Positions 14,425 through 59,724 of a DNA stretch of 64,000 bases are shown here, piece after piece. The stretch spans positions 14,944,001 through 15,008,000 of the forward strand of contig NC_087250.1 of NCBI RefSeq assembly GCF_037042905.1, written 5' to 3'. The stretch comes from Lytechinus pictus. Lineage: Eukaryota. The notes below the pieces were generated by a model, which was not told the origin of the DNA, searched no databases, and saw nothing but the letters and a program-made list of their open reading frames with translations. Numbering within the stretch: the first letter of the stretch is position 1; every line of letters begins with the position of its first letter. A program made the translations under genes and the position numbers.

Positions 14425-16132
14425 CCCAGGACCAAAATCCAATTGAAACCAGTTGGATTTCCAACTGGTTTCAATTGGTTTCAATTGGTTTTAACTGGTT
14501 TCAATTGGTCTTAACTGGAATTTAATAATTTCCAGTTGAAACCAATTGAAACCAGTTGGGCAACTGGAAATCCTAACTAGAACCAGTTGGGTAACTGGAA
14601 ATGACTTCCAATTGGAAATGATTTCTAACTGGAACCAGTTGAGTAACTGGAAATCCCAACTGGAACCAGTTGGGCAACTGGAAATCCTAACTGGAACCAG
14701 TTGGGTAACTGGAAATGACTTCCAATTGGAAATGATTTCTAACTGGAACCAGTTGAGTAACTGGAAATCCCAACTGGAACCAGTTGGGCAACTGGGAATC
14801 CTAACTGGAACCAGTTGGGTAACTGGAAATGACTTCCAATTGGAAATGATTTTTAACTGGAACCAGTTGAGTAACTGGAAATCCCAACTGGAACCAGTTG
14901 GGCAACTGGAAATCCTAACTGGAACCAGTTGGGTAACTGGAAATGACTTCCAATTGGAAATGATTTCTAACTGGAACCAGTTGAGTAACTGGAAATCCCA
15001 ACTGGAACCAGTTGGGCAACTGGAAATCCTAACTGGAACCAGTTGGGTAACTGGAAATGACTTCCAATTGGAAATGATTTCTAACTGGAACCAGTTGAGT
15101 AACTGGAAATCCCAACTGGAACCAGTTGGGCAACTGGAAATCCTAACTGGAACCAGTTGGGTAACTGGAAATGACTTCCACTTGGAAATGATTTCTAACT
15201 GGAACCAGTTGAGTAACTGGAAATCCAAACTGGAACCAGTTGGGCAACTGGAAATCCTAACTGGAACCAGTTGGGTAACTGGAAATGATTTCCAATTGGT
15301 TTCCAATTGGAAATTTTCCAGTTACCCAACTGGATCCAATTGAAACCAGTTAATTTGCATATTATCTGCCAGTGTGCACAGATTAATGTTTTATGAGATT
15401 CATCATCATTAACAATGTATCTATTTTTCTCTTTTCAATTACAAGTACCACACTTTTTAAAGATAAGTATTTAGAATACTTTGCAGTGAAAACCATGTTC
15501 ATAAATGTTATAGATTATAATTAAAACAGATTAAAGGATAATTAGTACACCACTAACTGTTACCAAATTACATGAAATGAAAATACATATATTTGAAGAT
15601 CTTCCATATAAATATATGTACATATGAAAGTCTGTATTTTATCAATGCCCTTTACATTGGTATCAATAGACATATAACATTGCTTCTGTGTTGGCATGAG
15701 CAATAGTTAGTGCAAATGCTAATTAATTTGTAACTAATTAAGTTAATTCCAACTGGAAGTTCCAATTGGATCCAGTTGGAAACCAATTGGTTTCAACTGG
15801 TTCCAGTTGAAACCAGTTGCCTCCAATTGGTTTCAACTGGAACCAATTGAAACCAGTTGCCTCCAATTGGATTCAACTGGTTTTAATAGGGAAATTGGAA
15901 CAACTGGAACCAATTGACACAAATTGCCAACTGGTTCCAGTTGCTCAATTGGTTTTAACTGGAACCAATTGGCAACTGGTTTTCAATTGGAACCAATTGG
16001 TTTTAACTGGAACCAATTGGCAACTGGTTTTCGATTGGAACCAGTTGTTCCAATTTCCCTATTGAAACCAGTTGGCCAACTGGTTTCAATTGGTTTTACT
16101 CTAATTGGTTTTAACTGGATTTTGGTCCTGGG
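14425..16132. mobile_element. Nested 1.7-kb CCC...GGG/2-bp-TSD non-autonomous element with internal satellite
   Basis: TIR CCCAGGACCAAAATCCA / TGGATTTTGGTCCTGGG, TT TSD, AACTGG/CCAGTT subterminal arrays; interrupts one subterminal repeat of the 9.4-kb element. Confidence 0.88.
14548..15300. repeat. 114-bp tandem repeat, about 6.5 near-identical copies
   Basis: gggcaactggaaatcct recurs at 14558, 14672 and onward; explains the 38-aa periodic ORFs on both strands. Confidence 0.95.
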
Positions 16133-31741: not shown

Positions 31742-32241
31742 TAATATCATGGGGGTGAAGGGATGGGAAGGGAAGGGTGGGGAGTGAAGGGGGAGATAAA
31801 GAAAGAGGAAAATTATGGGATTGACAGAAAAAATGCTGAAGTAGATTCACAGAGGAGAGGAAAATGTGCTGTGATCACGAGGTGCTGTGATCACGAGGTC
31901 AACAAGACAATTAAGAATATGGCGAGTGAATGGGTGGAGGATTGGGGGGGGGGGGGTTAAAAGAGGGGAAAGAGTGAACAGGGTAAGGGGAAGATGGAGG
32001 TGGGGAGTAGAGAGGGAAGGGGAGAAAGATGATTGGTGACAGAGTGAATGTTGATCTCGGCCCCATAACACAAACGTTAGCGATCAATCGCTCATTTGAA
32101 AGAACAATTCTGATTGGTTCCTAGTCAGTGCACTGAGCAAATGTGCATGCAACGATGATCTGGATTGGCCATTCCATTTAGCAATTAATCGCCAACTCCC
32201 TTGTGTAACTTGACCCTGGACTCAACGAGAAATTTGAGGAA

Positions 32242-32817
32242 ATGAAGTTGAAGGCCGAGAAGATTGAAAAGGAGAACAGAGAACTGAGGGAGCAGAACAT
32301 CTGTCTTCAGAAGAGGTTCAGTGAGTTGACCTTCCAGCTTAACGATCTTGACCAGTACCACAGGAGAGTCAACTTGGAGGTGGCAGGTGTACCAGAACGA
32401 CCGGGAGAGGTTCCTGAAAGGATCATACTCAATATTGCAAAACACATCAGCCCAGAGCTTGCAGCATCCGACTTCGATGTGGTTCATCGGCTGGGTTCCA
32501 AGCGCCAAGCTGATAACAGAGCCCGTCCAATCATCGTGCGATTCACCACAAGACGTGCTCGGAACATCATGTATGATGGAAGAAGAAAGCTGAAGACCCT
32601 CAGCACAAAAGATCTTGGATACAACAGCGATGGCAAAATCTACCTCAATGAAAACTTGATCGCTTCCACTAAGGAGCTAATGAAAGATCTCAACAAGGCC
32701 CGCCGAGATGCCGGATACAAGTTCTTGTGGACCCAGAATGGCCGAATCTATGTAAGGAAGGATGAGAAGTGTCAACCCATCATCATTCATTCCAGAGAGG
32801 ACTTTTCCAAACTGTAG
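32242..32817 (+). CDS. LINE ORF1 C-terminal fragment (coiled coil + RRM + CTD)
   Basis: LDQYHRRVNLEVAGVPE, VHRLG, RPIIVRF, IYLNENL, YKFLWTQNGRIYVRK motifs. Confidence 0.85.
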   Translation: MKLKAEKIEKENRELREQNICLQKRFSELTFQLNDLDQYHRRVNLEVAGVPERPGEVPERIILNIAKHISPELAASDFDVVHRLGSKRQADNRARPIIVRFTTRRARNIMYDGRRKLKTLSTKDLGYNSDGKIYLNENLIASTKELMKDLNKARRDAGYKFLWTQNGRIYVRKDEKCQPIIIHSREDFSKL

Positions 32818-33198
32818 TAGGACTATCCTTTATCCATTCCATGTTATTCGATTTTCCAGTATTCTTTTCATTTATTATGAAATTCTCGTCCCAAAATTTT
32901 TCGCATTGTTCAATATCTGTGTTATTTTCCGTGGTGTATTTTGCATTCCTTCACTGCCCTTTCAATAATGTTTCAATACCAGACATTTTATGGAGGTCAT
33001 TTTACTTATTTTTGTGTGCAAATATTCTTCATCGCCCGTTAATAATTGTATTAGATAATCTTTATTTTGTTAACTATTACAACTGTAGTATTTTCCGAAC
33101 TCGAATTTTGGGTCATGATGGTATCAAATCTAAAAAATGCTTTATATGCTTAGCTTACAAAGATTTTGTTTTAAAATGGCAATATATTATATTTCATA

Positions 33199-36100
33199 AT
33201 GGTGGATAATATGCGTGATTTCCCCTTTTATCATCTGAATAATGATGATTTCTTATTACTAAATCATCAAGATAAAAGCAATGTTATCTCAAATCATTAT
33301 ACTCCATTTCAGCATTTGATAGATTTTCTACTGATATTCTTACAAATAATTTTGATGAACTTCAAGTTGAATTCGATATTCATGATAAAGCATACAATCT
33401 TTCCTCTTCTCCATATTATACAGAAAATTCATTCAAAGACTATGCTAAATTGATTGGAGAAGATGATGTTTTTATTTTGCATTTGAATATAAGAAGCGCT
33501 AACCAAAACTTCGAGAAATGACGATTATTATTAGAAAATACACAGTTTGCCAATCCCCCAATTATTGCTCTTACTGAAACTTGGTTCACGGAAACCCCAA
33601 ATTCCTTATGCACCCTCCCGAATTATGATATTGTTATAAACAATAGGAAAAATAAAATTGGAGGTGGACTAGCATTATATATTCCGTCTTCATTTGATTA
33701 TGCAATTAGACATGAATTTGAATATATGAATGAAATCATCGAATCCTTATTTGTAGAAGTAAAAATTCAAAAAGATAAGAAAACTCTAATAGGTGTCATC
33801 TACAGACCTCCTCAAACTTCTTGTATAGAAGATTTTTTACTTGCTACTAATGAACTTTTGCAAAACGGAGAATTGATAAATAACAATTGTATCATCACTG
33901 GTGATTTCAATATTAATCTCTTGACCAGTAATCACTCTTTAACAAATGATTTCCTTGAATTAATGTTATCTTCTACTTTTTTGCCTATTATTTCTAGACC
34001 AACCCGTATTACTGATCATTCTGCTACGCTTATAGATAATATATTCTGTAACTCTCATCCTCTTCCGAAAGCTGGCATTGTAACGACAGACATATCCGAT
34101 CATTTTCTTATTTTTACCCATATCCAAACAATGCAATCACTCGCAAAAATGGAAAAGAAATATAGGATCTGTCGCAACTTTAGTGATAAAAATATTGAAC
34201 GCCTTCAAGAAGATTTAAGCTCTGTTGATTGGTCTGACGTTTATAACTCGAATGTGAATGTCGATGACTCATTTGACATATTTTTGAAATCTTTCAATGA
34301 CTGCTTAGATTCTTGTGTTCCTTTAAAGAAATGTCGAAATTACGATTATAAACGTGTTCCAAAGCTCCCATGGGTTTCAAAATTGATATTAAGGTCTATA
34401 AATCGGAAAAATAATCTGTATGTTTCTTATATATCAAATCCAAATGATATTTCAAGGAATAGATACACGTCTTATAAAAATACCTTAACAACTACTCTCC
34501 GAATAGCAAAAAAGAGGTTTTATTCAGAAAAATTAAATTCATATAAAAACGACCTTAAAAATACATGGAAAACAATAAATGGGGCCCTAAACAAAATTAA
34601 CAAATCTAGTGCTGTTCATAAATTATGTGTAGATGGAAATATGGTTGAAGATACTCATTCTATAGCAAATGAATTTAATACATATTTCTCTCAAATTGGA
34701 CCAAAGTTAGCTGGAAATATTATGCCTGTAGAAAATTCGTTTAAGGACTTTTTGGATAAACAAAATGAAAGTTCAATATTTCTTACTCCAGTTCATAGAG
34801 AAGAATTACTTGAGATTGTATTTAATTTGAAAGCAGAAAAGACTCCCGGTTATGATGGCATTACAAATAGAGTTGTGAAAAACATTATACATTCTCTTGC
34901 TGATCCTCTGCTTCATATATTTAATTTATCGTTGCAGCTTGGCCAGGTCCCAAAGAAGATGAAAATAGCTAAAGTTATACCCATTTTCAAGAAGGGAGAC
35001 CAATTAATTACTAGTAATTACCGCCCAATATCTTTGTTAACTTCGTTCTCAAAAATTCTTGAAAGGATAATTTATAAAAGGACAGTTGCTTTCCTTAAGA
35101 AATATAGTATTATATGTGATAATCAATTCGGTTTTAGAGAAAAACATAATACAACTCATGCTATATTGACATTAATAAATAAAATATCTACTTCTTTTGA
35201 CGATTCTGATCACACCGTAGGGTTATTTCTCGACTTCTCAAAAGCGTTTGATACAATAGATCATGAAATACTATTATGTAAGCTATCAAATTACGGTATC
35301 AGAGGGACAGCTTTACAATGGTTTAGGAGTTATCTTACTGATAGAATTCAGTTTGTTACAGTAAATGAATCAGAATCTCCAACAAGGCCAGTTTCCTGTG
35401 GAATTCCACAAGGTAGTATTCTTGGCCCTTTGCTATTTGTACTTTATGTTAATGATATGAAAAATTCATCTCATGTTCTCTCATTTATTCTCTTTGCTGA
35501 TGATTCCAATATTTTCTTTACACATCATGATCCACATGTACTTGTGAGCACGATGAATGCAGAATTTAAAAAAGTAACAAACTGGATTAAAGCCAACAAA
35601 CTGTCATTGAATCTGCAAAAAACTAATTATATGCTTTTTAGTCATTCATTGAAACATCTACCGCATCAAATACTTTTAGATAATACTGAAATCAAAGAAG
35701 TGCAAACAACAAAATTCTTAGGTCTTACTATTGATCACAAGCTTACGTGGAATGCTCATATCAACAATATTTGCAAAACTGTGGCAAGAAATATTGGAGT
35801 CATCAATAAGCTTAAAAACACTCTTCCAGCACAGGCGCTATCCATGTTGTATTGTGCATTAATTCTACCATATCTTAATTATGGAATTCTGGCATGGGGT
35901 AATGCCTCTCAAACGAGACTCAATAAAGTCTTGCTACTTCAGAAAAAAGTACTGAGAATAATATGCAATGTGTCCTTTAGAGCTCATACAGATGAATTGT
36001 TTCGTCATAAACGTATCCTTAAAGTCAATGACCTGTACCGCTTGCAACTATTCCAATTCATGTATCAGCTAGATAGAAATAGTGTACCTAATGTCCTACA

Positions 36101-36314
36101 AAAGAAATTTATGAAAAACAATACTTTACATTCATATAATACGAGACATTCAAATGACTATCACTTACCCAAAAGTAGAACAGTATTTTCTAGCAAAACT
36201 GTATTTTTCACAGGACCAAAACTCTGGAATTCTCTGGACAGAGTAATAAAAGAGGCAGCTAATCTAAACCGATTTAAATTACTCATCAAAAAATTTATTC
36301 TGAATTCTTATTGA
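33199..36314 (+). pseudogene. LINE ORF2 (APE+RT) with two N-terminal lesions; open from 33522 to 36314
   Basis: ATG 33199 (DFPFYHLNNDDF); frameshift between about 33276 and 33320; EN motif HLNIRS followed by in-frame TGA at 33519-33521; then LTETW, GDFN, SDH, PQGSILGP, FADD. Confidence 0.87.
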
Positions 36315-53154: not shown

Positions 53155-53737
53155 AGGGATGGTCCGGGGTGAAAATATGTATAGCTTAATAAATAGAGTA
53201 GAATTCACTGAGCAAAACGCAGAAAATTTCATCAAAATCGGATAAAAAATTACAAAGTTATTGAATTTTAAAGTTTAGCAATATTTTGTGAAAAGAGTAG
53301 TCATGAATATTCATTAGGTGGACTGATGATGTCACATCTCCACTTGTTCTTTTGTATTTTTATTATATGAAATTAGGTTTATTCAAATTTTTTCCTCCAA
53401 GAACTAGAAAAATTGGATTGACGACTGAATAGTGCTTTAGATATTGCTGCAACTTATTTCATTATAAGGGAGACATATTATTGACACAAGTATGAAATAA
53501 TGAAAAAATAATGATTTTATGTAATAACGTAAGAAACAGAAAGTGGAGATGTGACATCATCAGCCCACCTAATGAATATTCATGACGACTGTTTTTACGA
53601 AATATTGCTAAACTATAAACCTCAATTACTTTAATTATTTGTTATCCGATTTCGATGAAATTTTCGGCATTTTGCTCAGTGAATTCTACTCTATCATTTT
53701 TCTATGTATTGAAATATTTTCAGCCCGGACCATCCCT
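53155..53737. mobile_element. TTAA-site MITE with about 200-bp TIRs
   Basis: TTAA-AGGGATGGTCCGGG...CCCGGACCATCCCT-TTAA. Confidence 0.88.
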
Positions 53738-54481
53738 TTAAGAGGATATCCTTGTTTTCTGGGAAAATCCCATTTGTTGGACCAGCGGCAGTGCCTCTAC
53801 TACTTTTACTAGTACTACCATGACTACTGTTTCAAATATCATAACTTTATTTTTGATCTAGTCTAGGCCTACATCCGATTTTGATGAAATTTTCAGCATT
53901 AGGGCCTATGCCAGTTTGATTTTCCTCTAGATCTATTCATTCATATCAACATTTTTCTGGGGGTGGGCTTGAACTTTCCATTAGAATTCTTTCGACTGCG
54001 TTCCCCTTCCACTTGCTAGTCACAATCACACAGCTCCGCACTCCAGACCGTCTCCGTCATCATTCGCATCGATCACGCAGCTCTCTCTCTCAATTCTCAT
54101 GTCACTCTGCCTTTCGATCTTTAGTTTTATTGGCATTAAAAGATTTATGCGCATGCGTGAGGAGTTCGGACGTCTCTTTTGCTTTCTCTGATTTTTCAAA
54201 ATTAAATTTATTGAAAATTCCTTTTGGTCATCGCAAAAGTCGTCTTTTTGCCTTGCATATATATCTCCAACTTGTTGGAGTGCAGCTAGGAAGGTTTTTT
54301 GAGTTTATGCTTGACAAGAAAAGCAGGAATTTACCAGCTAAAAAACGAGTGTGGTTAGCACATCAGGTCAAGACCCCCGGGGCATATCAAGGTCAGCGTT
54401 TCTCTTTCCCGAAGCCGGGCCGTGCCGGGTGATCGTGGCAGTAGTACCAAGGTCAAGCTAAGGTCATTGGATTTGGAAAGA

Positions 54482-56071
54482 ATGGATGTACTTCACAAAA
54501 CTTTTTCCAAGCTATCTCCATTTAGCAAAGATAAAAATGAAGACATAAAAAATAATGAAAATTATTCAGAGGATGAAGAAGTAGAAATGAAGAAAAATAG
54601 CCAACCGTATCCTGGCCAGAATGAAAATGCCCCGGATGTAGAGAACCAAGGCACAGCCGGAGCTTCGCCGCCCGCACCCAACGACCGTACCGGAGTACGT
54701 AGGCAGCAGGGCGAGAAGGGAAAAGTACGAGCAGCTGCAGGAACAAGGAAAGTAAACGAAGGGGCCAAAGGAAGAGGACCTGATAAAGCCTCCAAGCCAA
54801 AAGCCATGCGTTCTGTATCCTTTACAGAATTAAACAAGGCTGCTCAAGAAAACAAGAAAGGTCAGGAGAAATTGAATAAACTCAAACCTACATCAAAGAA
54901 ATCATCAGGAAAGAAAGGTGAAGGTGCAAGCACAAGTAAGGATACATATGACTGTGAGTACTGCCATGAGGAAGGTGTTACACATATGATTGAATGTGAG
55001 GCATGTGAGAGATGGTCATGCATGACCTGCCATTATATGACACTTGACATGTACCATTTCTTCACAAATGAATCAAATAGAGCACATTGGTTCTGTGTCG
55101 ATTGCGAAAAGGAAGCAATTGACGCAGCAAAGTTAAAGGTGAAAAATAAAAAGACAACAACAAACTTATGTAGTAACGTTGAAAAAGAATTGGGTGAAGC
55201 TGTTGGGAAAATCTTACAAAATGCTCAACAGACAATGAAAGAAATGGTTGATGATGGTCTAAAACAGGTGAAAAAATCCTATGCAGAAGCATGCGAGCAA
55301 GGGCTAACCAATGCTGGTTCAGGTCAAGCAAGGCAAAGAGTAACTATACTCCAGAAGTCAGAACTAGAAACTGATAAAAGATCTACAAGATATGACAAAA
55401 ACAGTGAAAATATTGGCCATGTTGACACAAATAGTGGCATTGAGAGTGTTGTAAGCATGATCACGATGGAAGAACTAGTTGACAGAGAGCGAAGGAAAAA
55501 TAATATTGTATTCTACAATGTACCAGAATCAAAACAAGTTCAGATCCAAGATAGGGTAGCTGAAGACAAGAAACTCATTACAGACCTTGTCACAAATAGC
55601 CTCAAAGTTAAAGATGTCATCATTAATAAGGCTATCCGTCTTGGAGGTCAAAGGCAAGTTAAGGATAAAGCAAGAGTTCTGCTTGTACACTTGGAGAACG
55701 AGAGCATGAAGAGGGACATTCTAGCAGCATCAAGGAACTTGCGTGAGAATGAAAGATGGAGAAACACGTACATTGCTCCTGACATGACGAAGCAGCAGCG
55801 TGAAGAGAGCTGGAAGCTACGCCAAGAGCTGAGGGCAAGGAGGGATCAAGGCGAACATAACCTGATGATACGACATGGTAAGATAGTATCACGATGGAGA
55901 AAGAAGGACTTTACAAAAGATGATAGAGCAAAACCAGCCCATCAAGAAGAAAATCTCAGGGAAAATGTGAGTAATACATCTCCTCCAACATCTAGCGATG
56001 AAGTTAGTGATAGTGATATTGAGATAGATGGCACATTTGGAGCAGTTGGTGGGGCTCCTAAAACAGTATGA
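54482..56071 (+). CDS. LINE ORF1 protein (529 aa from first ATG): low-complexity N-terminus, PHD finger, coiled coil, RRM/CTD-like region
   Basis: CEYC...CEAC...C..CH...HWFCVDC; ERRKNNIVFYNVPE; RLG; YIAPDMT motifs of CR1-group ORF1. The track start at 54422 is GTG; first ATG is 54482. Confidence 0.88.
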   Translation: MDVLHKTFSKLSPFSKDKNEDIKNNENYSEDEEVEMKKNSQPYPGQNENAPDVENQGTAGASPPAPNDRTGVRRQQGEKGKVRAAAGTRKVNEGAKGRGPDKASKPKAMRSVSFTELNKAAQENKKGQEKLNKLKPTSKKSSGKKGEGASTSKDTYDCEYCHEEGVTHMIECEACERWSCMTCHYMTLDMYHFFTNESNRAHWFCVDCEKEAIDAAKLKVKNKKTTTNLCSNVEKELGEAVGKILQNAQQTMKEMVDDGLKQVKKSYAEACEQGLTNAGSGQARQRVTILQKSELETDKRSTRYDKNSENIGHVDTNSGIESVVSMITMEELVDRERRKNNIVFYNVPESKQVQIQDRVAEDKKLITDLVTNSLKVKDVIINKAIRLGGQRQVKDKARVLLVHLENESMKRDILAASRNLRENERWRNTYIAPDMTKQQREESWKLRQELRARRDQGEHNLMIRHGKIVSRWRKKDFTKDDRAKPAHQEENLRENVSNTSPPTSSDEVSDSDIEIDGTFGAVGGAPKTV

Positions 56072-58975
56072 CTCGAGGGAGCTACTGGAGAACAAGTGAA
56101 TAATGGCATACAACTCAACCGAAACAATTTGAAAGTGCTATACACGAATTCTGACTCGTTACTAAACAAAATGGAAAATCTACTCATTATGATTGGGGTG
56201 CAAAAACCAGATTTGATTATGATATGTGAAGTAGCACCAAAATCAAGTTTGTTCAAAGCAACCCCGGAAGTGTTAAGACTAGAGGGATTTCAGACATTTA
56301 CAAACATTGATCGGGAATCCAGTCTTCGTGGAGTGGTAGTATATATTAGTAATAGACTAAATGCCCATGAAGTTTTCTTTTCTGTAGACTTTACCGAATC
56401 CATATGGTGTTCAATCCAGCTAACTGGAAAAGATAGAATGTTGGTAGGATGTATCTACAGGAGTCCATCAAGTTCAAAAGAAAATAACAGGAAACTGTGT
56501 GATCTTATTAAAGCAGCCAGTGAGAATGGAGAAAAGTACTTATTGATCACTGGAGATTTCAATTATCCCGAAGTAGACTGGGAGAAGTCATATGTGAAAG
56601 CATCGCCCAATCATCCTTCGAACATGTTCCTAACTGCTACTCAAGAATCATTTCTTATACAACATGTATTGGAACCAACACGACATAGAAGCGGACAGAA
56701 GTCCAACACTTTGGACTTAATGCTTGCTAACTCTGACACCATAGTTACTGCACTGCAATATCTTCCACCTTTAGGACTTAGTGATCATGTATGCTTATTT
56801 GCCCATTTGAATATAGATAATGACCTGAGAATGTTGGAAACAAAAGAAACTCGTATGATATTTCAGAAAGGAGATTATGAATCTATGAAACTTTCTCTTG
56901 AACCTATCAATTGGGAGGATGAACTTGAATTACTTGATTGTGATCGAGCATGGAATTTGCTGCGAGAGAAAGTGGAAGTTCTTGTCAAAAAGTATGTTCC
57001 AATGAGACAATGTAGTAAAGACAAAAGACGGAACATCTATATTACTAAACCAATCCTGAAACTTTCTAAGAAAAAAGCACGAAAATGGAAACGCTATACC
57101 AAAAGTGTTTATAGAAATGAAGACGAGAAACAAGCAGACTTAAATTCATATAAGAAGGCAAGAAATGAGCTAAGAAAGGCAACAAGAGCAGCCAGTCGTA
57201 ACTTTGAAGATGACCTAGTGGAAAGTATCAACTTTAATCCTAAGGCTTTTTGGAGGTACGCAAATAGCAAGATTAAAGGTAGAAGTCAGATAGGAAGTCT
57301 TAGAAGAGATGATGGATCTCTAGTAGAAACTGATAAGGAAAAGGCAGATGTCCTTAACAAATACTTTTGTGAAGTATTTACTGTTGAAGACTTACAAAAC
57401 TTTCCAGATTATGTGACCGGAGTAGACGCTGATATACCTTGTATGGAAAAGTTAGGATTTGAAACATCAGATGTGACAAAAATGATCAAAACCTTAAATG
57501 TGAATAAATCAGCTGGCCCAGACGGGATCCATCCTAAAGTGCTGAAGGAGTTGGGTGAAGTTATTGCAGAACCACTATCTATCATATTCAACAAGTCAAT
57601 GCATGAAGGTAAAATTCCAGCTGACTGGAAAAAGGGAATTGTAATTCCTCTTCCCAAGAAAGGAACTAGAACACAGATTTCTAACTACAGACCGGTGAGT
57701 CTTACATCGATAGCAGGAAAACTAATGGAAAAGATTGTGAGGAATGCTGTAGTGGATCATTTGCAAGATAATCAATTGTTGTATTATAACCAACATGGAT
57801 TCATCCCAGGACGGTCATGTTCCACACAACTTCTGTATGTGCTTGAAGAATGGACGCAGATGCTTGATGAAGGGAAGCCAATCGATGTTTTGTACTTAGA
57901 TTTTCGCAAAGCATTTGACAGTGTTCCCCATGAAAGGCTACTACGTAAACTAGAGAGACACGGAATTACGGGCCAACTTCTTATCTGGATGCGAGAATTT
58001 TTGACAGGAAGAGTTCAGCGTGTACGAGTAAACAGGGAACTATCTCCATGGTCTCCAGTATCAAGCGGAATACCGCAAGGGAGTGTTCTCGGACCTATTC
58101 TCTTCCTAGTCTTTATCAATGACCTATCATCTGCTGTCAACAAGAGTAATGTTGCTTTATTTGCCGACGACACCAAACTTTACAATATAGTGAGTGACTT
58201 ATCAAAGATCAAAGATCTTCAAGAAGACCTGGATAGACTACAATTATGGTCAGCGAAATGGCAGTTACCTTTCAATAGCAGTAAATGTAAAGTTCTACAC
58301 ATCGGAAGGAATAATCCAGAAGCAAAATTTTATATGTTGGAACAAGAAGTGAAGTCAGTAGCTACCGAAAAGGATCTTGGGGTAACAGTTGATAATCAAT
58401 TGAAATTTCATCAGCATGTGTCTCTAGCTGTTAATAAGGCATACCAACTGCTTGGAATCGTAAAGAGAACTTTCACTCAACTAAACAAATCTACATTGCC
58501 CATTCTCTTCAAGACATTAATTAGACCACATCTGGAATATGGGAGCGTCATCTGGAACGGTAGATTTACAGAACATGCTAAGAAGGTTGAGAGAGTACAG
58601 AGGCGAGCAACAAAACTAGTGAAGGACTTGAGAAACGTACCGTATGAAAGGAGACTCAGGGAACTTAACATGTACTCACTCTATTATAGAAGGAGGAGAG
58701 GAGATATGATAATGGTCCACCAGATTATGCATGGATTGGTCAACATTTCTCCAGACCATTTCTTCTCCAAGTCTGGTAGTAACTCTACAAGAGGTCACTC
58801 CATGAAATTATTGAAATCCCATAGCAAACTGGATGTGAGAAATAAGTCTTTCAGTAGAAGAGTCATCAATGACTGGAATAGTCTTCCTGAAAACCTAATA
58901 CAAATGCCAACAACAGACAAATTTAAAAGAAATATTGATATTTTTTGGCAAAAAAACCACTTTGAGCTTCCATGA
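56072..58975 (+). CDS. LINE ORF2: AP endonuclease + reverse transcriptase, uninterrupted
   Basis: EN motifs YTN, ICE, IYRSP, GDFN, LDL, SDH; RT motifs YRPVSLTS, DFRKAFD, GIPQGSVLGP, LFADD, KDLGV; C-terminal TRGH. Frame is open directly from the ORF1 stop. Confidence 0.93.
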   Translation, partial: LEGATGEQVNNGIQLNRNNLKVLYTNSDSLLNKMENLLIMIGVQKPDLIMICEVAPKSSLFKATPEVLRLEGFQTFTNIDRESSLRGVVVYISNRLNAHEVFFSVDFTESIWCSIQLTGKDRMLVGCIYRSPSSSKENNRKLCDLIKAASENGEKYLLITGDFNYPEVDWEKSYVKASPNHPSNMFLTATQESFLIQHVLEPTRHRSGQKSNTLDLMLANSDTIVTALQYLPPLGLSDHVCLFAHLNIDNDLRMLETKETRMIFQKGDYESMKLSLEPINWEDELELLDCDRAWNLLREKVEVLVKKYVPMRQCSKDKRRNIYITKPILKLSKKKARKWKRYTKSVYRNEDEKQADLNSYKKARNELRKATRAASRNFEDDLVESINFNPKAFWRYANSKIKGRSQIGSLRRDDGSLVETDKEKADVLNKYFCEVFTVEDLQNFPDYVTGVDADIPCMEKLGFETSDVTKMIKTLNVNKSAGPDGIHPKVLKELGEVIAEPLSIIFNKSMHEGKIPADWKKGIVIPLPKKGTRTQISNYRPVSLTSIAGKLMEKIVRNAVVDHLQDNQLLYYNQHGFIPGRSCSTQLLYVLEEWTQMLDEGKPIDVLYLDFRKAFDSVPHERLLRKLERHGITGQLLIWMREFLTGRVQRVRVNRELSPWSPVSSGIPQGSVLGPILFLVFINDLSSAVNKSNVALFADDTKLYNIVSDLSKIKDLQEDLDRLQLWSAKWQLPFNSSKCKVLHIGRNNPEAKFYMLEQEVKSVATEKDLGVTVDNQLKFHQHVSLAVNKAYQLLGIVKRTFTQLNKSTLPILFKTLIRPHLEYGSVIWNGRFTEHAKKVERVQRRATKLVKDLRNVPYERRLRELNMYSLYYRRRRGDMIMVHQIMHGLVNISPDHFFSKSGSNSTRGHSMKLLKSHSKLDVRNKSFSRRVINDWNSLPENLIQMPTTDKFKRNIDIFWQKNHFELP

Positions 58976-59724
58976 CTCCTCACGCAAGCTCATGTCTTCA
59001 TGAAGTAGTAATTTTCAGTGACCAATCATACAAGAAACGACCGGGAATTACAGGCTTGCGCCTTCATCCCGTACCAGATGATGATGATGATGATGATGAT
59101 TAATTATCCTGGTTTAAGTCACCACTCCATTCACTGCCTTTTATTTCGTCAGCGGCAGTGCACGACTTCTTTCATCTCCCATTGACTTTGTCTTTGTAGT
59201 TGTACACAGCTAGCGCACACACACACACACAAGTCGAGAATTAGTATTACCAGTACTATTAGAACGTTTTAGAAGAGAGCCGACTTATTTCAGGATAATG
59301 CCCTCTTATTTCTGTCTCCAGCCAAGCCCAGGCCAAGATATAAGTCGATTCTCAGGCATGGGAAATTAATGACAATGATATGGTCTGTACATAGGAATCT
59401 GTTACTGAGGTGTTCCGGACCGGGAGTCGATGATCCTACGACTAGTACGAGTACGAGATTCATACCCCCACACATCATACTGACAGACATGACATACGGT
59501 ACACGAAATGCAATGGGTGGGCCAAGGGGAAATTCATACAAAACGAACACTGCAAGCTCTAAGAAAATTGGATAAAATCGATAGATTTTATGATGTTTGT
59601 TATCAAATCGCTATATTTATGACACTTTCATATTATGAGTAATCTTTTAATATTAATTAAAAACACTGATGATAGACATAAATAATAAATTTGCCCCGAT
59701 TTTAAGAATTATGTGTACTCTTAC

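Follow-up and report, generated by a model that had tools for sequence, protein, structure and literature searches.

An in-frame UGA-C between the two genes of a CR1-like LINE of Lytechinus pictus as a candidate site of programmed stop-codon readthrough

The window analysed here, a whole stretch of 64,000 nucleotides (nts) from Lytechinus pictus (contig NC_087250.1, positions 14,944,001 to 15,008,000), carries on its plus strand, at approximately 54150–59100, an intact CR1-like long interspersed nuclear element (LINE) whose two open reading frames (ORF1 and ORF2) lie in one frame and are parted by a single UGA followed by C. It is probable that this element makes its ORF2 protein by programmed readthrough of that stop. 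The initial annotation had already advanced this reading, and what sustains it is that leaky stop contexts are enriched, in the manner of a selected character, in those related families whose two frames coincide, and that the position of the stop is old and stable; the local base pairings proposed in the same annotation did not stand. The parts of the element are the following:

54148–54481, plus strand: probable 5′ leader, its left edge approximate (record 1 of sequencing run X1 begins 852 letters before 55000, assuming no gaps)
54482–56071, plus strand: ORF1, 529 amino acids (aa), from ATG 54482 to the TGA at 56069–56071
56039–56053, plus strand: GAVGG, a motif common to the closest ORF1 relatives and lying five codons ahead of the stop
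56069–56072, plus strand: in-frame TGA with the following C, a single stop and the candidate readthrough site, proposed from the context statistics of related families
56068–56103, plus strand: ATG overlapping the stop (ATGA), in another frame of 11 codons only, not ORF2
56072–56128, plus strand: linker of 19 codons without ATG, with near-cognate GTG 56096 and ATA 56108; TTG 56129 comes next, at the first endonuclease strand
56129–56791, plus strand: APE-type endonuclease domain of ORF2 (Pfam PF03372, PF14529; alignment A1)
57653–58333, plus strand: reverse transcriptase (RT) domain of ORF2 (Pfam PF00078, E 1.4e-34)
58973–58978, plus strand: ORF2 stop, TGA-CTC, the same hexamer as at the ORF1 stop
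59077–59100, plus strand: (GAT)8 tail and end of the element, after a 3′ untranslated region of about 100 nts

The ORF1 ends in the codons GTA TGA (56066–56071), after which the same frame remains open for 967 codons (56072–58975), in such a way that a readthrough product starting at ATG 54482 would measure 529+1+967 = 1497 aa. The first in-frame ATG, at 56171, lies downstream of the first endonuclease motif, and before it the frame contains only the near-cognate codons GTG 56096, ATA 56108, TTG 56129 (with a purine at −3), GTG 56135, and ACG 56144. All of these coordinates that the initial annotation had given (the stop, the 967-codon frame, ATG 56171, GTG 56096, and the length of 1497 aa) were verified in the sequence. 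The ATG at 56068–56070 opens a frame of 11 codons, so the AUG in the frame of ORF2 that characterizes a SART1-type arrangement is absent. The EGATG encoded after the stop (56075–56089), like the GAVGG before it, resembles the motif that some relatives carry close to the end of their ORF1.

To place this junction in a wider group, the endonuclease alignment A1 was used as a profile, which yielded 80 metagenome loci (the best 80 of 502 confirmed), 23 genome-contig loci, and further LINE contigs in genome bins, presumably eukaryote DNA binned with bacteria. Many LINE contigs of eukaryote type sit in the bacterial bins G001, G002, G007, and G191 (G002 gave 56 matches), and this contamination serves at the same time as a supply of LINE family sequences. 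The 219 loci, together with two stretches of the window, gave 185 with an endonuclease start and 156 families at 80% identity, from which 44 without an ORF1 call and one with a spacer were set aside; of the 111 analysed, 35 have both ORFs in the same frame, 58 are minus-one, and 18 plus-one. Two families with discordant members took the class of their longest member, and ORF1 was called by profile in 86 families; in the other 25 it was taken to be the longest frame upstream, under a distance limit that was widened during the analysis.

The ORF1 stop is TGA-C or TAG-G, hereafter the leaky contexts, in 29 of the 35 same-frame families and in 8 of the 76 out-of-frame families (Fisher p 8e-14, a value that treats families as independent and is not corrected for their relatedness on the tree), and the same-frame count becomes 28/34 when the window element is removed. 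The expectation of the initial annotation concerned UGA-C by itself, and it was borne out: among TGA stops, C follows in 10/11 same-frame versus 2/9 out-of-frame families (p 0.0045). Among TAG stops, G follows in 19/21 versus 6/27, and TAA, in turn, closes ORF1 in 3/35 versus 40/76. When only families with an unbroken ORF2 are taken, the proportions are 29/32 versus 6/58, the three broken same-frame families having neither context. The difference is also seen with ORF1 calls made by profile only (13/17 versus 7/69), among CR1-close families (7/9 versus 7/65), within the source genomes G002 and G191 (19/22 versus 2/17), and after single-linkage clustering at 60, 50, and 45% identity (21/26 versus 6/66, 16/20 versus 2/42, and 14/17 versus 0/20, respectively). 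As controls, the same contexts occur at 2 of 32 ORF2 terminal stops, one of them that of the window, at 11 of 76 incidental stops, at 11.8% of 3565 off-frame stop triplets, and at the bounding stop of 9 of the 38 families without an ORF1 call.

The two contexts are divided by source, with TAG-G in 19 of the 22 same-frame families of G002 and G191, and TGA-C in 7/7 of those of G001, G433, and G386, a split that possibly reflects host-specific pools of suppressor tRNAs; the UGA-CUA form occurs in families L108, L119, L122, L212, and L213. An altered genetic code in the hosts was considered and rejected, as TAG is absent from the long ORF2 frames and does terminate out-of-frame ORF1s of these sources. 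A quick tree was made from the endonucleases of 106 of the 111 families (five were dropped for short domains); on it the same-frame state changes 14 times, with at least 8 of these changes forced by well-supported branches.

The age of the stop can be appreciated from relatives and from other sequencing runs, of which 4 of the 23 listed were compared with positions 55000–57200 of the window; run X10 does not cover the junction, and about 6% of one raw RNA run supplied 8 reads, too few to speak of expression or mechanism. In run X1 (organism A, contigs) record 2 spans 55995–56963 with 3 differing letters and 0 gaps. Here no T is changed anywhere, and the displayed rows place every change at other positions, save for one A>T and one G>A; therefore, the X1 stop could vary only to TGT or TAA, and ATG at 56129 is excluded. 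Records 13–15 of run X9 (organism B, about 5% different) span 55844–56566, also with 0 gaps, and no indel is listed between 55766 and 56652. A copy-specific nonsense change or indel at the stop appears unlikely from these comparisons. A nonsense mutation in this copy of what would be a single-ORF element, which the initial annotation had named as the finding that would undo its proposal, could appeal to the possible TGT in X1, to the X9 letters at 56069–56071, which stand among 49 rows not displayed, and to the EGATG with which the linker begins; against this, the five displayed differences common to X1 and X9 all lie away from the stop, the ORF1 relatives P0122, P0123, and P0124 (51, 64, and 39% identical) end at the same position after the shared GAVGG motif, and in one cluster of related ORF1s 9 of the 11 members end identically. 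Moreover, no fused ORF1-ORF2 protein was found among the 150 ORF1 relatives listed (the longest being of 764 aa), nor among 3616 long candidates, in a weak search, nor when 120 ORF2 relatives were searched with the ORF1 profile, and a search for proteins spanning the junction gave 11 matches, all on the endonuclease side only, so that the nonsense explanation is extremely improbable. A stop-start mechanism like that of SART1 at ATGA 56068–56071, from which an indel in this copy would have moved the ATG out of frame, or which would need a frameshift within the 11-codon mini-frame, has in its favor the overlap itself, and the minus-one families L020 and L024 in which an ATGA overlap does have ORF2 in frame; the absence of gaps and listed indels across the junction in X1 and X9 makes it very improbable. 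The production of ORF2 from a spliced or shortened RNA lacking the stop is likewise hardly to be expected: TAG-G resembles a splice acceptor, and X1 contains a joined form, but the stop of the window is TGA, no pyrimidine tract precedes the TAG-G stops (0.44 versus 0.37), on which ground the splice-acceptor reading of TAG-G was rejected, no joints are listed within 55000–57200, and the joined form has no GT-AG ends and loses the endonuclease and half of the RT. This form (X1 record 3, without the 1911 nts of 56025–57935, in frame, with a depth of 6 where the intact junction has 5.8) joins ORF1 to the latter half of the RT, bypassing the stop, and is probably an internally deleted copy.

Reinitiation after termination without an AUG, as for mammalian L1, is the alternative to which most weight has to be given, unlikely as we consider it. 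According to it, ribosomes that ended ORF1 would restart at GTG 56096, ATA 56108, or TTG 56129 and make a separate ORF2 protein, the shared frame would be a one-in-three accident, and the RNA coding for GAVGG could help to hold the ribosome. The three near-cognate codons are indeed in frame, and TTG 56129, besides its purine at −3, is aligned with the start Met of the relatives P0013, P0020, and P0043; a motif of the form GA[VTAS]GG is found in 11 of the 150 ORF1 relatives listed, each with a copy 1–15 residues from the C-terminus, and GAVGG is also present in the minus-one family L128. The initiation of ORF2 in L1 and SART1 has been described, in the accessible parts of the articles, as unconventional and dependent on ORF1 (PMC5972666, PMC5009743, PMC2881922). 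An in-frame ATG before the endonuclease is lacking in 24 of the 35 same-frame families, and also in 37 of the 76 out-of-frame families, and because of the latter an AUG-independent route without readthrough must exist in the group. Reinitiation does not predict, however, that the stop contexts should be leaky only when the frames coincide, nor does it account for the 7 of 35 same-frame families in which neither an ATG nor any listed near-cognate start precedes the endonuclease.

Other observations count against readthrough, some in the survey and others in the element. The TAG-G context, which had not been fixed in advance, was first spotted in the data, then matched to the published type III context, and tested afterwards; most TAG-G families come from two sources, G002 and G191; and the nearest neighbors of the window element on the tree are minus-one families, with weak support. 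The context at the ORF1 stop is UGA-CUC and not the canonical UGA-CUA or UGA-CGG, and because the element's own ORF2 stop is also TGA-CTC, a single TGA-C constitutes weak evidence. Single-sequence folding detected no 3′ stimulatory structure at the stop (z +1.7 and +0.5), 23 of 30 shuffles gave a long-range duplex at least as good as the best one at the junction, and none of 10 members of the TGA-C class of families folds with z<−2. With respect to the pairing of GCTCC (56054–56058) with GGAGC at 56039–56043 or at 56078–56082, which the initial annotation had suggested, the complementary letters exist, but they pair no better than chance; folding z-scores of the junction range from −0.58 to +0.58 in 5/5 windows, and it contains 3 stems of five base pairs versus a mean of 1.7 in shuffles (P=0.27). 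When whole classes are compared, TGA-C families show no stronger folding, and TAG-G families show it to a mild degree only, at 90 nts.

If we accept readthrough of the UGA, the course of events would be as follows. The element, young and intact, would be transcribed as a single RNA with two genes, ribosomes would start at ATG 54482 and mostly end at UGA 56069, giving an abundant RNA-binding ORF1 protein, and in a small share of cases a near-cognate tRNA, aided by the C at +4, would decode the UGA, the reading ribosome then crossing the linker into the endonuclease and the RT to produce the ORF1-ORF2 fusion. Low readthrough would ensure a high ratio of ORF1 to ORF2, and through the fusion the enzyme could be anchored in the ORF1 particle, as happens in Gag-Pol readthrough. 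The layout and the enrichment of contexts are seen directly; the event, its rate, the fusion protein, and the role of the latter are inferred.

The surveyed families also offer natural variants of this arrangement. In L096, L119, and L212 the first endonuclease motif is reached no more than three codons from the stop, whereas L167 and L174 have more than 100 ATG-free codons before the endonuclease. The two last belong to a zinc-knuckle clade of ten families (L165–L167, L170, L172–L175, L214, and L215; 44–79% identical) in which ORF1 ends in UAG a few codons past the knuckle and a GGC..GCC stem with a variable loop begins six bases past the UAG, the stem being invariant even at third codon positions, when 0 of 14 fourfold columns are invariant in the control; covariation in this hairpin was not above that of shuffles (221/500). 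In 38 families of the minus-one class (e.g., L004, L007, L012, L022, and L024) the ORF2 frame is open for a median of 43 codons upstream of the ORF1 stop, versus 6 in control stretches, and slippery heptamers number 19 per 1726 codons in the overlap versus 37 per 12161 elsewhere, with at least one in 17/38 families; −1 frameshifting is therein possible, with the reservation that A-rich tails may inflate the signal. A run of T followed by A (e.g., TGTTTTA), 5–20 nts past the ORF1 stop, was seen by eye in L017, L029, L031, L081, L104, and L112, as well as in L115, L125, L202, L204, L205, and L206, families of one group that differ in frame. Among viral contigs, 47 pattern matches were obtained and 0 were confirmed. 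A more general proposal can be advanced only tentatively, and we would place it slightly short of an even chance: that several clades of invertebrate LINEs have come repeatedly and convergently to make ORF2 by readthrough, each with a leaky context suited to its host, and that, if the minus-one class is added, fusions like Gag-Pol would be widespread among LINEs, against the model of separate proteins drawn from L1 and SART1.

With regard to its proteins, the ORF1 of the element presents, in order, a low-complexity N-terminus, a PHD finger (profile of alignment A3, best E 3.5e-12; Pfam PHD in 14 of 29 alignment members), a coiled coil, an L1-like RRM/CTD, and an acidic tail; its model matches human L1 ORF1p (E 3.7e-6), and its closest relative is a Lytechinus pictus (sea-urchin) protein. 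ORF2 consists of the APE endonuclease followed by the RT, as in CR1-clade LINEs, the solved protein nearest to the RT being human L1 ORF2p. LINEs of the CR1 clade have no RNase H domain and end in short tandem repeats instead of poly(A); no RNase H family of Pfam was found at E<=0.01, and the 3′ end of the element is formed by such repeats, the (GAT)8. The label CR1-like, which comes from this domain content and from general knowledge of the clade, should be understood as provisional, an ORF1 with PHD and RRM/CTD not being diagnostic, as it is also present in L2. A search for target-site duplications gave a single 7-mer that does not adjoin the tail, Pfam detected no protease domain in the LINE proteins, and an Rfam search of 53500–59500 gave no match at E<=1, a search from which divergent forms of SECIS could escape. 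The close ORF2 relatives L001 and L002 and the proteins P0002, P0006, and P0007 carry repetitive N-terminal extensions of 430–630 residues and are apparently single-ORF elements; the extensions of the three proteins were tried as ORF1 fusions and rejected, with no detectable ORF1 domain.

Elsewhere in the window, a second and different LINE at 32209–36314 has a 202-codon ORF1 fragment followed by an ORF2 in which an in-frame stop inside the domain, at 33519–33521, parts the endonuclease start (33276–33521) from the remaining 930 codons, and looks like a damaged copy. A tandem array of a 114-bp unit at 14542–15299 (6.6 copies, 98% matches) gives rise to long open reading frames on each strand.

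The translation of the second gene of LINEs is a long-standing unsolved problem. The models that reviews give for it, in their accessible parts, are all of reinitiation and derive from human L1 and silkworm SART1, and ORF2 translation is described as reinitiation or as unclear (PMC3708506, PMC5972666, PMC5009743, PMC2881922). If readthrough were true, some LINEs would make an ORF1-ORF2 fusion like the retroviral Gag-Pol, which bears on the entry of the enzyme into the particle and on cis preference, and natural variants would be at hand, including families in which the stop abuts the endonuclease and no start codon is left. It also carries a caution for those who build consensus sequences and call genes, namely that such stops would not be decay and that ORF2 should not be made to begin at an internal Met. 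A literature search from which subscription journals, Repbase Reports, and preprint supplements stayed outside found neither readthrough reported for any animal LINE nor the context enrichment described here.

The element shares with L1 and SART1 an RNA of two genes, and in these ORF2 depends on ORF1 translation, according to the accessible parts of the sources (PMC5972666, PMC3708506, PMC2881922); the two genes of L1 are parted by a spacer of 63 nts, with an AUG for ORF2, and SART1 has an overlapping UAAUG with the AUG in the frame of ORF2, while the window element has neither a spacer nor an in-frame AUG. Non-LTR elements with 2A (StopGo) use a D(V/I)ExNPGP motif, their frame running on without interruption, in what is seen of PMC3708506; here inspection by eye shows no NPGP close to the junction, and the frame is closed by a genuine stop codon. 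The order PHD, coiled coil, RRM/CTD in ORF1, and APE plus RT in ORF2, is that of types IIC/IIIB, whose PHD and L1-like ORF1 are described for both the CR1 and L2 lineages in the part available of PMC4120745, the main text of which contains no occurrence of "readthrough" or "read-through."

Read-through has been suggested for the Group 3 LINEs of Paramecium (Guerin et al. 2017, PMC5405496), a ciliate clade, on the basis of frame, with no context statistics or assay in the accessible part of the article and no read-through term in three supplement files; the window element is, in contrast, an animal CR1-like LINE with a PHD/RRM ORF1. The copia-type elements VdLTRE5 and Tca2, for which a leaky gag-pol stop is described in the part seen of PMC3441728, have likewise two retroelement ORFs parted by one in-frame UGA, although they are LTR elements with protease-processed polyproteins, and no protease domain was found in the window LINE. 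Among viruses, as the accessible parts of PMC3159437 and PMC4615788 define them, type II readthrough uses UGA-CUA/CGG (alphavirus, tobravirus) and type III uses UAG-G (gammaretrovirus Gag-Pol). The site has the single UGA, the in-frame downstream ORF, and the C at +4 of type II; it has UGA-CUC in place of the CUA/CGG consensus, no 3′ stem-loop or pseudoknot was detected, and it resides in a non-LTR retrotransposon. The element would probably operate in the manner of viral type II readthrough, but because consensus and 3′ structure are wanting it is not filed as a type II member. What it has in common with both viral types is a polymerase placed behind a single leaky stop, with UGA-C in this element and UAG-G in many related families.

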